Below are positions 7,602 through 12,944 of a stretch of 64,000 nucleotides of DNA, in pieces. A model generated the notes under the pieces. That model saw nothing but the letters and a program-made list of their open reading frames with translations. It was not told where the DNA came from and ran no database searches. Source of the DNA: Bacteroidota bacterium (GTDB lineage: Bacteria; Bacteroidota; Bacteroidia; 2-12-FULL-35-15); the NCBI GenBank assembly GCA_003151815.1, contig PLYN01000012.1, forward strand, positions 183 through 64,182. Reading direction: 5' to 3'. The translations under genes were made by a program, and so were the position numbers. Position 1 is the first letter of the stretch. Each line of letters begins with the position of its first letter.

Positions 7602-8903
7602 TTAACCTTCTAAAACAGCTTTCACTTTTTTATCCATCAAGGCTTTTATCATTTGGTTGCATAAGTTACCTATGCTACCTTCATGCACATGGTTGATCGT
7701 TTCAAGAGCCTCGAAATTACCTTTTTCAATGGCATTTCCGACATTCTTATATGCTTCACGAAATGGAACACCTTTTAACACCTGTGCATTAACCACTTCT
7801 ACACTAAACATCAAAGCATATTTTTTATCTTTTAAAATATCTGATTTTACCTGAACACTCTCTAGCATAAAAGAAGTGATTTCTAAACAATCCTTCAACG
7901 TTGTTATTGCAGGGAACAAACTTTCTTTCGTTAATTGCATATCACGATGATACCCCGAAGGCAAATTATTGGTAAGCATTGTTAACTCATTTGGTAAAGC
8001 CTGAATTTTATTGCACTTCCCACGCACCAATTCAAATACATCCGGATTTTTTTTGTGCGGCATGATGCTGCTTCCTGTTGTTAAATTATCAGGAAAAGTT
8101 AAAAATGCAAAATTCTGATTCATGTATAAACACACGTCATACGCCAGTTTTGAAAGCGTTGCAGCTATCGAAGCCATTGCCATTGCTGCAATTTTTTCTG
8201 TTTTACCGCGCGTCATTTGCGCATACACCACATTGTAATTCATTGTTTCGAACTCCAATATTTTTGTTGTCATTTCACGGTTAAGTGGAAACGACGAGCC
8301 ATAGCCTGCTCCGGAGCCTAATGGATTTTTATTGGTGACATGATATGCAGCAGTGATGAGCTCCATATCGTCCATCAAGCTTTCTGCATAAGCGCCAAAC
8401 CACAAACCGAATGAAGATGGCATCGCTATTTGCAAATGCGTATAACCCGGCAATAATTTATCTTTGTGCTCTTCACTTAAATCAATTAATTGATTGAACA
8501 AATTAGAAACAAGTTTTACAATTTCTTTCAATTCATATCGCACATACAATTTAATATCTACCAATACCTGATCATTGCGTGAACGACCACTGTGTATCTT
8601 CTTCCCTGCTTCACCAATGCGTTTGGTCAACATCAGCTCTATCTGTGAATGAATGTCTTCTACTCCTTCTTCAATTACAAATTTACCAGCCTTAATTTCT
8701 GTTAGAATATTTTTTAATTCTTTATGTATGGAAGCCAACTCCTCTTTGGTCAACAAACCAATGGACTCCAGCATTTCAGTATGAGCAAGAGAACCTAACA
8801 CATCAAATTCAGCCAAAGATAAATCCAATTCATTGTCCTTTCCAACCGTAAATTTTTCAATCAGATTGGATGTTTTATTGCTTTCTTTTTGCCAGAGTTT
8901 CAT
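7602..8903 (-). CDS. argH: Argininosuccinate lyase
   Basis: HSGRSRNDQ, GYTHLQ and GSSIMPHKKNPD signature. Confidence 0.97.
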   Translation of the reverse strand: MKLWQKESNKTSNLIEKFTVGKDNELDLSLAEFDVLGSLAHTEMLESIGLLTKEELASIHKELKNILTEIKAGKFVIEEGVEDIHSQIELMLTKRIGEAGKKIHSGRSRNDQVLVDIKLYVRYELKEIVKLVSNLFNQLIDLSEEHKDKLLPGYTHLQIAMPSSFGLWFGAYAESLMDDMELITAAYHVTNKNPLGSGAGYGSSFPLNREMTTKILEFETMNYNVVYAQMTRGKTEKIAAMAMASIAATLSKLAYDVCLYMNQNFAFLTFPDNLTTGSSIMPHKKNPDVFELVRGKCNKIQALPNELTMLTNNLPSGYHRDMQLTKESLFPAITTLKDCLEITSFMLESVQVKSDILKDKKYALMFSVEVVNAQVLKGVPFREAYKNVGNAIEKGNFEALETINHVHEGSIGNLCNQMIKALMDKKVKAVLEG

Positions 8904-9021
8904 ACTGTTTAGCTCAATGTTTAAAAATTCAATTTAGGAAGTTGTGACAAATGGAGTCTAAGTCCTATGGCACAAAAATACAAGAATCAGGCATAACTCA
9001 GACAAAGCTTTACTTAGGAAA

Positions 9022-9597
9022 TTAAAAATCTAATTTTGGTGCAGCTTTTTTTACCCCTTTTCTAACGTTATCTCCCGTTTCAATTAAAAACGAAAAATGT
9101 GTGGTAGACTTAAATTTATAACCATAATCGCTCTTTTCTTTCAATAAAAAATACATGTCTCCTTTTTTCATCGTTACATTCATTTCCTCTGTATCCAACA
9201 TCTTTGCGATGTTTTCCTCACTATATACTACACCATCAGATAATTTATATCCTTCCTTTTTTTTCTGAGCAACAATTTGAGAAAGAAATTCTGCCACCGC
9301 CTTTTTATTGGTAGCACCCTTAACGGATATTCGAACAGATTCAGGAAGCAATTCCGAATTACGCGATATTATCACATCTCCATGCAACTCAACATATGAT
9401 GTAGAAAAATCTACTGTTGGCTTACCTTTATATTTTTCAGCAAGTTTATCAATTTCTCTTTTGCCTGTTGATGTTTTACTTTTCGCAGTTTTTTTAGTCG
9501 TACTTGTTTTTTTAGTTGTTGTTTTTTTAGTTGTGCTTTGACCATATACTGAAATTGTAAACAGCAAAAGCATTATTAGGTGGTTTCTTATTTTCAT
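9022..9597 (-). CDS. Hypothetical secreted protein with Lys/Thr-rich N-terminus
   Basis: Signal peptide followed by a TTKKTTTKKTSTTKK low-complexity tract. No family recognised. Confidence 0.75.
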   Translation of the reverse strand: MKIRNHLIMLLLFTISVYGQSTTKKTTTKKTSTTKKTAKSKTSTGKREIDKLAEKYKGKPTVDFSTSYVELHGDVIISRNSELLPESVRISVKGATNKKAVAEFLSQIVAQKKKEGYKLSDGVVYSEENIAKMLDTEEMNVTMKKGDMYFLLKEKSDYGYKFKSTTHFSFLIETGDNVRKGVKKAAPKLDF

Positions 9598-9689
9598 AAT
9601 ATTTAGTTTAAAGTTGGAAGTAAAAGTTATCTTGAAATTACGTTTTTAAATATTAAATATAGGTACAAAAACATTTCAATTTATATCAT

Positions 9690-9697
9690 TATATTTG
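9690..9697 (+). promoter_or_regulatory. -7 promoter box for the small-peptide unit
   Basis: TATATTTG, 46 nt upstream of the ATG at 9744. Confidence 0.65.
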
Positions 9698-9743
9698 TAA
9701 AGCAGTCAGGTGTTAATTAAATAATTAATCAAATTAAATTAAC

Positions 9744-9833
9744 ATGAAAATGGAAATTAAAACTGAGTTTGTTCAGTCCCTAACGACACTAGTAATAGCT
9801 GTAGTTATACTGATATTAGTTGCAAAACACTAA
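9744..9833 (+). CDS. Small hydrophobic peptide MKMEIKTEFVQSLTTLVIAVVILILVAKH (29 aa), type I toxin-like
   Basis: Below the ORF-track cutoff. A-rich start context, a single TM-like helix, an upstream promoter box, and downstream hairpins with a U-tract. Confidence 0.7.
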   Translation: MKMEIKTEFVQSLTTLVIAVVILILVAKH

Positions 9834-9871
9834 AACTCATCAGGAGTCTGATTTGAAATAACTCCTCCTGA

Positions 9872-9907
9872 GTGTAACTAGTAGTTATACCACTTGACTG
9901 TTTTTTT
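9872..9907 (+). terminator. Probable 3' end of the small-peptide transcript
   Basis: Hairpin gtgtaact-agt-agttatac, then cacttgactg and T7. Confidence 0.55.
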
Positions 9908-9956
9908 ACACTAATATCTTTCCAAACTTCTTTCATTATGCAATTATTTAATAGAA

Positions 9957-11105
9957 TTATTTCTTTTTTGTTTTTTCTTTCCCACCCATCTTATAAGCTA
10001 ATCCAATAATACAAACTATTCCAAATACTATTCCTCCCAATATTTTAAAATGATTACTTAGGTATAATCCTACAATTGTTAATGTATATACAGTAAAGTC
10101 AGCGATTGCTCCCAGATAATCACCTAAATAATATTTTGCATCGCATCTATAATAATAAGTATGATAATTTGCAGGATAATTTTTAGGTTCAAGTTCAATA
10201 ATTTTTGTATAATCAACTATTGCTCCTTGATAATCTCCTAAAGCCATATATGTATCGCCTCTATCATAATAAGCTTGCAAAATATCAACTCTCCGAAATT
10301 CAGAAGAGTCAAATTCAATAATTTTTGTATAATCAACTATTGCTCCCTGATAATCTTTTAAAGCCTTTTTTGCATTGCCTCTATCATAATAAGCGCGATA
10401 AAATTCTGGCTCAAGTTCAATAGATTTAGTAAAGTCAGCTATTGCTCCTTGATAATCTCCTAAAGCCATATATGTTTCGCCTCTATCAAAATAAGTACGA
10501 TAATATTCATCAGGTTTATTAAATTCAATACTTTTTGTATAATCAACTATTATTTCCTGTTCTCTCTGATAATCGTATAATTCATTACGATAGTTACTTA
10601 TTCTTCCATAACAATCATAATATTTTCCACCTTTCACTTCATAAATTTCTTCAGATTTGTTGCCGTTTATAATGATTAAAGTTCCATTTAATGGGTCAAA
10701 TTGAAATTTACCCAATTTTGCCATTGCTGATTGTCCTAACAAAAGAGGCGCTGAAATATTATTAACAACGGTAGCTTCAACATTGTAAATTACGTTTCCT
10801 GCAAATTCAATTTTGCGTATTATAATATTAGTGCCTACTGAAATATCACCTGTTGCGTCTGAATAATATTTCCTACCTATAATATCTTCTTTGCTTAAAT
10901 ATCCATTTTTTAACATAAAGAGTGCCTCAGTTAATGAAATAGAAACTTCACTGGCTCCTGTATCAAAAATGAATTTTAGTTTAAGGTCATTGACTTTGCA
11001 AGGAACTACATAAACACCATTTTCTTTTTGCATTCTAATAGTAGACTGTCCATAAAATGGAATACCAATAAGCAATGAAAGGAATAATAAAGTATGTTTA
11101 TACAT
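9957..11105 (-). CDS. Clan AA (retropepsin-like) aspartyl protease fused to TPR repeats and a C-terminal hydrophobic segment
   Basis: Signal peptide, FIFDTGAS catalytic motif, LLGQS, repeated AYYDRG..Y..LGDYQGAI.DYTK.IE TPR units and a hydrophobic C-terminus. Confidence 0.88.
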   Translation of the reverse strand: MYKHTLLFLSLLIGIPFYGQSTIRMQKENGVYVVPCKVNDLKLKFIFDTGASEVSISLTEALFMLKNGYLSKEDIIGRKYYSDATGDISVGTNIIIRKIEFAGNVIYNVEATVVNNISAPLLLGQSAMAKLGKFQFDPLNGTLIIINGNKSEEIYEVKGGKYYDCYGRISNYRNELYDYQREQEIIVDYTKSIEFNKPDEYYRTYFDRGETYMALGDYQGAIADFTKSIELEPEFYRAYYDRGNAKKALKDYQGAIVDYTKIIEFDSSEFRRVDILQAYYDRGDTYMALGDYQGAIVDYTKIIELEPKNYPANYHTYYYRCDAKYYLGDYLGAIADFTVYTLTIVGLYLSNHFKILGGIVFGIVCIIGLAYKMGGKEKTKKK

Positions 11106-11126
11106 ATTTTAAATATTTAAAATCAA

Positions 11127-11402
11127 CTATGTATTTGAAAGACCTTTAGAGCTAAATCTTAAATTTTTAATTAATATATCAAACTCTATTTCATTTTCAC
11201 TTATTAATCTTACTTCATCATTAGAGATATTTTGCAAACGAATGCCTGGCACAACTTTATCATCTGGAATTTTATCTGAGTTACGATATTTCTTATTTGC
11301 TTTTTCAATAATCTTAACATTTTTTTGTTTGATAGCTATATGGTGCTTTGTAACTATATCCTCATAAATGGCAAATTTGTTTTTATCTACGTTATGTTTC
11401 AT
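11127..11402 (-). CDS. Hypothetical protein (91 aa), possibly a gene fragment
   Basis: ATG-initiated ORF in the accessory islet. No motif recognised. Confidence 0.45.
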   Translation of the reverse strand: MKHNVDKNKFAIYEDIVTKHHIAIKQKNVKIIEKANKKYRNSDKIPDDKVVPGIRLQNISNDEVRLISENEIEFDILIKNLRFSSKGLSNT

Positions 11403-11423
11403 GTTATTATATATTTTATTTTT

Positions 11424-11571
11424 TTAGAATTTTACTTCCCAGTGAATCATTGCTCCTAACTTAAAAGCCTGAAAACCTTCTTCAAACTTGTCTCGTTTTG
11501 CTGTCCCTTTTTTTACCGTATTGCTCATCCACAAACTGGTCAAGAGATTTTAAATTACTTTTCTTTTTCAT
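11424..11571 (-). pseudogene. Frameshifted, truncated XRE/HigA-like antitoxin remnant
   Basis: MKKKSNLKSLDQFVDEQYGKK, one extra A in an A7 run (11508-11514), then GTAKRDKFEEGFQAFKLGAMIH. This resembles the N-terminus of Bacteroidota HigA-type regulators but stops before the HTH. Confidence 0.7.
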
Positions 11572-11621
11572 TTCACAATTCTACTTTTTAAAAAACTACT
11601 CAAACTTAATGTTTTTAAATA

Positions 11622-11797
11622 CAGGTCGCCCCGATGGGGCTTGAAATAATTGGTATAACTTTTTTTCTACAAACAGAATACTCCTACGGAGCATTTTAAA
11701 ATTCTCCTTCCTTTGTCAGGATAAACTCCGAGATGAACTGTTTGTAGTAATAAAAAATGAATCATTTATTTAAGCTCCGTAGGAGCGGTCTGTTAAT
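11622..11797. repeat. Cluster of GTAG-tagged REP-like palindromes (REPIN/BIME-like)
   Basis: caggtcgccccgatggggct; ctacaaacag..ctcctacggagc; inverted ..ctgtttgtag; gctccgtaggagcggtctgtt. Confidence 0.75.
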
Positions 11798-11814
11798 ATT
11801 GTAAACAAGCCACG

Positions 11815-11849
11815 AAACTTTAAACTTTTAAACTTTGAACTTTAAACTA
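11815..11849. repeat. Heptamer tandem array (AAACTTT flavour), single arm starting at the M20 stop codon
   Basis: aaacttt aaacttt taaacttt gaacttt aaacta. Confidence 0.8.
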
Positions 11850-12944
11850 TATCAAACTTGAAATCATTTTCACATACAAATCCACTCCTTCTTTAATTTC
11901 ATCAAGATAAATAAATTCATCTGCTGTGTGCGAACGTCCTGAAAAACCGGGACCTAACTTCAAGGATGGAAAATTCATCAAAGCCTGATCAGAAGTAGTT
12001 GGAGAACCATAAGTAGTTCTACCCAATTGTAATCCTGCCTGCACTATGGGGTGATTCATGCTGATGGAAGATGGTGTTAACCGCAATGAACGGGGTTTTA
12101 CGTCACAGGTAACATGTTCTTTAATGATGTCAAATATTTCTTGATTTTTATAAGCATCTGTAATACGAACATCCACCACAAAATCACATTTATCAGGTAC
12201 CACATTGTGTTGTGAACCTGAGTGAATAACTGTTACAGACATTTTAATTGGCCCCAACGTATCTGATACTTTAGGGAATTTATAGGTGATGAACCATTCA
12301 ATATCCTTCAATGCTTTATATATCGCATTTTCGCCTTCTTCTCTGGCAGCGTGTCCGGATTTACCATGACTGGTGCAATCAAGCACCATTAAACCTTTTT
12401 CAGAAACTGCTAAATGCATTTGAGTAGGTTCGCCAACAATTGCAAATTCAACATTATCCAGTTCAGGTAAAATAAGTTCTATGCCATTTAATCCTGAAAT
12501 TTCTTCTTCTGCGGAAGCAGCAAAAACAATGTTATACGGCATGTTTTCATTTTCATAAAAATACATGAAGGTTGCCAATAGAGATACCAAAGGTCCACCG
12601 GCATCATTGCTTCCCAGTCCGAATAGTTTTCCGTCCTCAACAATTGCTTCGAACGGATTTTTTGTATAACCCGAATTCGGTTTTACGGTATCGTGATGAG
12701 AATTTAATAAGATGGTCGGCAACCCTTCCTTATAATGCTTGTTACGCGCCCACACATTGTTCATCATGCGAAATGCCGTAATGCCTTTCGATTTCAAAAA
12801 ACGTTGCAACAAGTCCGCAGTCACGTTTTCTTCTTTACTGAATGACGGAATCGGAATTAACTGTTTAAGTAATTCTATTGAATCATCCGTTACCTGATTT
12901 ATTTTATTTTGATCAAGCGATAAGCTTTGTTCCTGTGTTCCCAT
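11847..12944 (-). CDS. argE: M20 family acyl-ornithine/acyl-citrulline deacylase (ArgE-like)
   Basis: LLNSHHDTV, GLGSNDAGG, AEEEISG, GEPT and SHTADE metallopeptidase motifs, inside the arg operon. Confidence 0.85.
   Translation of the reverse strand: MGTQEQSLSLDQNKINQVTDDSIELLKQLIPIPSFSKEENVTADLLQRFLKSKGITAFRMMNNVWARNKHYKEGLPTILLNSHHDTVKPNSGYTKNPFEAIVEDGKLFGLGSNDAGGPLVSLLATFMYFYENENMPYNIVFAASAEEEISGLNGIELILPELDNVEFAIVGEPTQMHLAVSEKGLMVLDCTSHGKSGHAAREEGENAIYKALKDIEWFITYKFPKVSDTLGPIKMSVTVIHSGSQHNVVPDKCDFVVDVRITDAYKNQEIFDIIKEHVTCDVKPRSLRLTPSSISMNHPIVQAGLQLGRTTYGSPTTSDQALMNFPSLKLGPGFSGRSHTADEFIYLDEIKEGVDLYVKMISSLI

Follow-up and report, generated by a model that had tools for sequence, protein, structure and literature searches.

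A self-contained Bacteroidota unit for a small hydrophobic peptide, with conserved RNA end pairing and a tentative likeness to type I toxin genes

Type I toxin systems, which are RNA-controlled, usually lie in accessory or mobile DNA. One-helix toxins of 27–38 residues are encoded by tisB/istR-1, zorO/orzO and dinQ/agrB of E. coli and by bsrG/SR4 and txpA/RatA of Bacillus, with antitoxins that are non-overlapping or 3′-overlapping. The hok/sok loci of enterobacterial plasmids and chromosomes are likewise discrete mobile or accessory modules for a small single-helix membrane peptide. Many other membrane proteins of 20–50 residues are benign regulators. We know of no type I system described in Bacteroidota, and a full-text search of the literature found none.

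Both the hok and the aapA/IsoA toxin mRNAs have a documented long-distance 5′–3′ pairing (PMC6733600). The hok mRNA is highly folded, with its extreme 5′ end paired to its 3′ end (fold-back inhibition). In aapA/IsoA, a system of Helicobacter and other Epsilonproteobacteria, the toxin has about 30 residues and the mRNA roughly 200 nt; a conserved 5′–3′ interaction leaves the full-length mRNA inert, and hairpins at the start site add control (PMC6733600). The 3′ end of the aapA message masks the Shine-Dalgarno sequence, and the divergent IsoA RNA is essential. Initiation in Bacteroidia is tuned by mRNA structure and an unstructured A-rich leader, not by the Shine-Dalgarno sequence (PMC6847099). 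Because initiation there proceeds without Shine-Dalgarno pairing, hiding such a sequence, the common means of silencing toxin messages, is not available in Bacteroidota.

The unit studied here lies on the plus strand at positions 9690–9907 of the window, by which we mean the whole 64,000-nt stretch of contig PLYN01000012.1 that was analysed. A first-pass annotation had proposed a self-contained, unannotated promoter-to-terminator unit at this place, transcribed against its neighbours and encoding a type I toxin-like membrane peptide. Its elements (promoter box, pairing arms, ORF, hairpins and T7) were all found where it had put them, and the analysis below supports both the self-contained unit and its orientation, as far as sequence comparison can.

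At the upstream end is a sigma-A −7 box of Bacteroidota type, TATATTTG (9690–9697, +), the only perfect TAnnTTTG on either strand within 200 nt. The flavobacterial sigma-A box TAnnTTTG, as mapped in Flavobacterium psychrophilum, occupies −12 to −5 (PMC9723704). This spacing puts the predicted start at G9702/C9703 and the predicted +1 at G9702, the foot of a long-range helix that closes the RNA. The 5′ arm of this closing helix, CAGTCAGGTG (RNA CAGUCAGGUG; 9703–9712, +), sits within the 15-nt block GCAGTCAGGTGTTAA, and its 3′ arm is CACTTGACTG (RNA CACUUGACUG; 9891–9900, +). The arms pair at 10 of 10 positions with one G-U, as the first-pass annotation had it. Directly 3′ of the helix is a U7 tract (T7; 9901–9907, +), the putative point of intrinsic termination.

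Between the arms, a start-codon hairpin, AAUU-AA-CAU-[GAAA]-AUG-GA-AAUU (9737–9758, +), appears in the folds of both known copies of the unit and in their consensus fold; its stem includes pairs between the second AUG and the A and U of the first. The ORF, taken from the open reading frame list, has 29 codons plus a stop (9744–9833, +) and encodes MKMEIKTEFVQSLTTLVIAVVILILVAKH, a polar N-terminus followed by a single predicted hydrophobic helix. Two hairpins follow it on the 3′ side. Hairpin 1, UCAGGAG/CUCCUGA, has 7 bp and an 18-nt loop (9840–9871, +; arms 9840–9846 and 9865–9871), and hairpin 2, GUGUAACU/AGUUAUAC, has 8 bp including one G-U (9872–9890, +; arms 9872–9879 and 9883–9890).

The predicted RNA, 9703–9907, folds at −48.6 kcal/mol (z = −3.84), and none of 200 dinucleotide shuffles folded as well. 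The minimum-free-energy fold includes the 10-bp end helix, whose pairs each have an ensemble probability of 0.94–1.0. Across the genome (2.53 Mb, 34.6% GC) there are 3,881 TAnnTTTG boxes, and we scanned these for cases where the predicted 5′ end pairs over at least 8 bp with the bases just before a T-run 100–330 nt downstream. Only three boxes gave such pairing, the longest being that of the present unit. The other two box-to-T-run units, G000:C22:54158-54323 (−) and G000:C35:17125-17269 (−), pair over 8 and 9 bp and have no membrane-peptide ORF; the arms of the C22 unit are CCCCTCC/GGGGAGGGG, within an otherwise AT-rich genome.

A tblastn search of the 68 genomes of the genus gave a single weak match (E = 0.016), which led to the sole homologue, at an unrelated locus in another MAG of the genus (G082, contig CAZJUY010000050.1). 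At the nucleotide level the two copies match far better (blastn E = 5.9e-23, 73% identity), and a two-sequence covariance model, R1, scores them at 233 and 235 bits. The similarity runs from the promoter box to the U-run only, with unrelated flanks, the whole module being 230 bp; because it stops at promoter and terminator, we take the module to be discrete and selected. The second copy retains the box (as TAAATTTG, at the same aligned position), the 15-nt 5′ end GCAGTCAGGTGTTAA without change, the start region CATGAAAATGGAAAT, both 3′ hairpins, the pairing of the ends and, in the corresponding position, the U-run (UUACUUUUU), and its RNA ends are likewise closed in the minimum-energy fold. 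It has a 28-codon hydrophobic frame, MKMEITPEFLRALIRLVTAVTMLILAIS, and CCTGACTG just before TTACTTTTT. That every element is retained in this homologue is the main reason for excluding a chance origin. The first-pass annotation had named tblastn and covariance-model searches among the checks of its proposal; these yielded one homologue preserving both the ORF and the long-range 5′–3′ pairing that it had described. NCBI gene calls on the G082 contig miss the peptide ORF. On contig L066, identical to the window, the gene caller's pick over the unit is a 43-aa minus-strand ORF (9805–9936), which is not conserved in the second copy.

A consensus fold, obtained with RNAalifold on a hand-corrected alignment of the two sequences, returned four helices. 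In the closing helix, whose 3′ arm reads CUCCUGACUG in the second copy, 8 pairs are common, the G-U has become G-C and one U-A has become a broken U-U. All seven pairs of hairpin 1 are unchanged, its 3′ arm lies inside the conserved block CTCCTCCTGAGTRTAACT and its loop retains GAUUUG.AAA. Hairpin 2 keeps 7 pairs in the second copy, with the one-sided, pairing-preserving changes U-A to U-G and G-U to A-U. The first-pass annotation had suggested looking for compensatory changes in the end pairing. The only one found is in the outer stem of the start-codon hairpin (A-U to G-C, its 3′ side being the synonymous third base of the Ile5 codon), and the changes in the closing helix are all one-sided. 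With two sequences such covariation is anecdotal, consistent with the structure but no proof of it.

Conservation of the primary sequence is concentrated in blocks, of 22/23 nt at the 5′ end and 15/15 nt at the start, with others at CTCCTCCTGAGTRTAACT, at GTTATRCCWCYTGACTGTT and in the GAUUUG.AAA part of the hairpin-1 loop. Synonymous sites of the ORF are near saturation (pS 0.54, dS about 0.94): of the 15 codons for conserved residues, 6 carry synonymous differences. Non-coding blocks of 12–23 nt that stayed identical over this divergence must be selected as RNA or DNA. Blocks of the RNA outside the ORF are more conserved than the peptide.

The frame itself also bears signs of constraint. Both copies have the same start, the same phase and 28 codons in common, with 15 of 28 residues identical at a nucleotide divergence of about 33%, and dN/dS in this two-sequence comparison is about 0.35. 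GRAVY is 1.24 for the 29-aa window peptide and 1.25 for the 28-aa G082 peptide, the best 19-residue hydropathy windows reach 2.65 and 2.14, respectively, and one transmembrane helix is predicted. The small, hydrophobic, single-helix peptide of the first-pass annotation holds up. In a permutation test the 28 observed substitutions were placed at random, and frames that had no stop and reached the observed hydropathy and identity or more arose with p of about 0.004–0.006. Changes by codon position (6/9/13) are not significant alone. We think it probable that the 29-codon frame is translated. The initiation context of the second copy is poor (C at −3, G at −6). Neither peptide has a family in Pfam or NCBIfam at E up to 10, Hok/Gef, Ldr, Fst, Ibs and TisB included, and a two-sequence peptide profile run against 1.84 billion protein representatives gave one match, which was spurious.

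The family is rare. DNA, tblastn and covariance-model searches place the unit in 2 of the 68 genomes of the genus (genus, family and order are here the identical set of 68). It is single copy in its own genome, with no further copy by blastn or nhmmer, and a DNA search of 40 relatives returned AT-rich noise only. Samples of 400 genomes each, from the class and from the phylum, contained no member by model R1, whose one match (E = 0.07) was to a spurious hairpin of 80 nt. An exact two-block pattern had 13 matches in about 185,000 species genomes, but only that on the G082 contig is genuine, the remainder being chance matches, mostly in biotin-carrier genes. A pattern scan of the JGI metagenomes gave four chance matches and no member, and four pattern scans of IMG/VR gave none, nor did blastn of plasmids with the window copy or of phages with the G082 copy. 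Looking up the exact sequences of the peptides and of the proteins next to them led back only to the same two assemblies. The ENA metagenome contig L066, from assembly ERZ27254241, carries the unit and matches the window at 100% identity over 7,149 nt; because of this identity we count it as the same strain and not as an added family member. No family of Rfam 15, 6S-Flavo and the known Bacteroidota sRNAs included, matched within the unit at an E-value of 10 or below. Judged from its sequence, the unit is a new family of a known general kind, one without Rfam, Pfam or NCBIfam match, and its distinctive features are the Bacteroidota setting and an end helix that appears to form the terminator.

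Both copies lie in accessory or mobile DNA, the location that a type I-like reading would call for. In the window, a low-GC insertion of 2.9 kb (8904–11846) separates argH (7602–8903) from argE (11847–12944). Its GC content is 25–31%, versus 34–40% for the flanks, and in G019, of the same genus, argE (67% identical) and argH (74% identical) are separated by 4 nt. We found no integrase in the insertion, and no terminal direct or inverted repeats on either the insertion or the unit. Besides the unit it holds three unrelated minus-strand ORFs. One is an orphan of 191 aa (9022–9597, −) with a signal-peptide-like start and a Thr/Lys-rich repeat, which has neither a Pfam family nor a homologue in the 67 other genomes of the genus. 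The second encodes a 382-aa protein (9957–11105, −) with a retropepsin-like aspartyl protease domain at its N-terminus, a hydrophobic tail at its C-terminus and TPR repeats; the third is a 91-aa ORF (−). Repetition is visible in the DNA of the two larger ORFs, as 15- and 33-nt repeats at 9472–9537 in the first and as repeats of 102–120 nt at 10085–10580 that make up the TPR part of the second. As to the flanking genes, an argH match (E < 1e-30) occurs in one of six near-complete genomes of the genus (G082, G077, G074, G003, G044 and G019), so either arginine biosynthesis seems to be patchy or this 68-species ‘genus’ is very heterogeneous.

The second copy is on a ~6-kb islet (L060 1–6167) integrated at a tRNA-Leu gene, and has a phage-defence-like gene on either side of it. 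At one end of the islet is the tRNA-Leu gene (L060 6085–6167), and at the other, the contig start, a direct repeat that copies at least 51 nt of the 3′ part of that tRNA. Its genes are a tyrosine integrase of Bacteroidota type, a DUF4145 protein that matches the PD-T7-4 defence model, a DUF2971 protein that matches the candidate PDC-S31, an HTH protein and two unknown ORFs. Both genomes have a divergent gene to the left of the unit and a convergent one to the right, and because of the latter the unit cannot be the leader of a downstream gene; a leader or attenuator RNA is excluded on this ground. Other known RNA classes were considered and rejected. Terminal pairing is found in retron msr-msd RNAs, but neither locus has a neighbouring reverse transcriptase. 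A 6S RNA was rejected for want of an Rfam match, and presence in only 2 of 68 genomes excludes a housekeeping RNA.

The first-pass annotation had reported no antisense promoter, and our search bears this out. Within 200 nt of either copy the minus strand has no perfect TAnnTTTG, the sense promoter being the sole one in each, and the one-mismatch candidates in the window, GAAGTTTG (9923–9930) and TTAATTTG (9730–9737), have no counterpart in the second copy. With no conserved antisense promoter, an RNA antitoxin, the partner that defines a type I system, is not detectable from the sequence. Read-through from the convergent 382-aa gene could be a source of antisense RNA, though not a conserved one. 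In the window the minus strand has hairpin 1 and then GUUUUAGUGUUUU, 130 nt past the stop of that gene, and the local minus-strand fold at hairpin 1 does not surpass shuffled sequences (z = −0.9). The convergent gene of G082 stops 570 nt from the unit.

What the unit shares with type I loci is a hydrophobic peptide of fewer than 60 aa (29 and 28 aa) with one predicted helix, a conserved end pairing together with a start codon in a hairpin, which by the predicted folds may restrain translation, and a patchy distribution (2/68 genomes), the module being discrete and carried by accessory or mobile DNA. The type I toxin–antitoxin reading of the first-pass annotation therefore stands in part: module, peptide, conserved pairing and accessory location are upheld, but an RNA antitoxin was not detected and no toxin family matches. 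Its fallback, a regulated small-protein locus, fits about as well.

Closer comparison with the described systems gives likenesses and differences in each case. The fold-back logic of the unit may be likened to that of the hok and aapA mRNAs, by analogy of its end pairing and start-region hairpin. Unlike hok, with which it has no sequence or Pfam relationship, it has no mok-like overlapping leader ORF, no Sok-like antisense promoter and no Shine-Dalgarno sequence to occlude, and its fold-back helix lies directly against the U-tract and seems itself to form the terminator stem. The sizes of peptide and mRNA and the hairpin at the start site recall aapA; however, no homology and no IsoA-like gene are visible, and the helix of the unit is formed by nt 1–10, about 30 nt upstream of the start codon, whereas the 3′ end of aapA masks the Shine-Dalgarno sequence. 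With the short toxins of E. coli and Bacillus it has in common the length and character of the peptide, a stand-alone gene and a structured 5′ region. All of those have an identified RNA antitoxin and several are under SOS or stress control, whereas for the unit we found no partner RNA, no regulator site and no homology. Stand-alone small bacterial membrane proteins resemble it in size, in their single hydrophobic helix and in being overlooked by annotation, but their genes are mostly embedded in operons and vertically inherited, whereas the unit is solitary, patchy and islet-borne and has a conserved RNA architecture.

The reading that we put forward, tentatively and with less than even confidence, is that of a type I-toxin-like unit, a horizontally acquired, stand-alone gene whose tightly folded mRNA of ~205 nt encodes a single-helix membrane peptide of 28–29 residues. 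The conserved box lies 5 nt before the conserved 5′ end, the first 8–10 nt pair with the 8–10 nt that precede the U-tract, and a small GNRA-capped hairpin contains the start codon. Because hairpin 2 ends 10 nt upstream of the U-tract and only the long-range helix abuts it, the latter should act as the terminator stem. The same helix would seal both ends of the RNA, and an RNA with no free 5′ or 3′ end would be expected to decay more slowly from its ends and so be long-lived. Translation would be low, given the closing helix and a start codon held in a hairpin in a phylum that relies on an unstructured A-rich leader. If the RNA were opened or trimmed, the peptide would act on the membrane, and might thereby stabilize the islet or help in defence. 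A silencing antisense RNA would be either absent, the unit silencing itself, or unrecognizable from sequence.

For a switch of this kind the folding predictions offer little. A series of folds of the growing transcript has no conserved metastable helix (the 5′ end pairs with codons 6–8 in the G082 copy and not in the window copy), and the predicted accessibility of the start region is nearly the same in nascent, 3′-shortened and full-length RNA. Activation by processing is accordingly a conjecture. The boldest form of the type I-like reading, a toxin gene of Bacteroidota defence islets that silences itself, has no antitoxin and would yield its peptide only on loss of the helix, we regard as quite improbable. 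One helix would then terminate transcription, seal the ends and silence the message, and it might be lost when the 3′ end is trimmed, or when RNA is damaged or its decay altered during phage infection or loss of the islet.

Several observations weigh against the type I-like reading in general: there is no conserved antisense promoter, the peptide is unlike any known toxin family, only two sequences are at hand, the closing helix has one-sided changes only with one pair broken in G082, no hok-like switch is visible in silico, and the initiation context of the G082 copy is poor. The product could instead be an ordinary non-toxic membrane protein, such as an accessory subunit or modulator, made from a stable compact mRNA in which the fold-back helix serves as terminator and end protection. 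This we hold to be rather unlikely. The conserved hydrophobic frame and its coding constraint would suit it, as would the undetected antitoxin and a folding series that predicts no translational switch. Genes of this kind are, however, usually found in the operons of their partners, whereas the unit is solitary and convergent with an unrelated neighbour in both genomes; it is patchily distributed, one copy being on an integrative defence islet; and the greater conservation of RNA blocks outside the ORF also speaks against this reading.

That last observation also counts against the type I-like reading, since it fits a mainly RNA-level function. The unit would then be above all an RNA with a regulatory or structural role, either a dual-function molecule or a non-coding sRNA; its frame would be incidental or secondary, and the conserved loops and CUCCUCCUGAG would be its working parts. 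Conservation is indeed highest in non-coding or structural segments (the 15 nt at the 5′ end, the arms of the hairpins and the loop GAUUUG.AAA), several amino-acid-changing substitutions preserve RNA pairing, and the codon-position changes of 6/9/13 are not significantly coding-like. The doubled AUG forms a helix, and AUG is normally avoided near start codons in Bacteroidia (PMC6847099). We nevertheless find this reading unlikely, because frame, start and length have been kept through a divergence of about 33%, with GRAVY at 1.24 versus 1.25 (p about 0.005 by permutation), and because there is no Rfam family and no nameable target or partner. It is barely credible that the region is not a gene but a bidirectional terminator and promoter region of the flanking minus-strand genes, with ORF and end pairing arising by chance. 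The minus strand does have hairpin 1 followed by GUUUUAGUGUUUU, and the reverse complements fold almost as well (z = −3.0 and −3.4), so fold energy is uninformative on strand. The plus strand is assigned on other grounds: it carries the promoter box and the ORF, the U-run lies on the matching side, and four G-U pairs become C-A mismatches when read on the minus strand, where the local fold is unremarkable (z = −0.9). The whole 230-bp module, with its plus-strand box, ORF and U-run, is conserved beside wholly different genes in G082.

As a conserved fold-back message for a small membrane peptide, the unit would offer a concrete, clonable test case, both for how such messages may be silenced in Bacteroidota and for whether intrinsic termination can be brought about by a long-range helix. 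As the family is small, with two known copies, both in MAGs, either outcome would have limited reach. Were the peptide harmless, the locus would still be an unannotated small-protein gene under unusually strong selection on its RNA. Were it a self-silencing toxin, it would be a type I-like module suited to a phylum that initiates translation without the Shine-Dalgarno sequence, and the first such family there.
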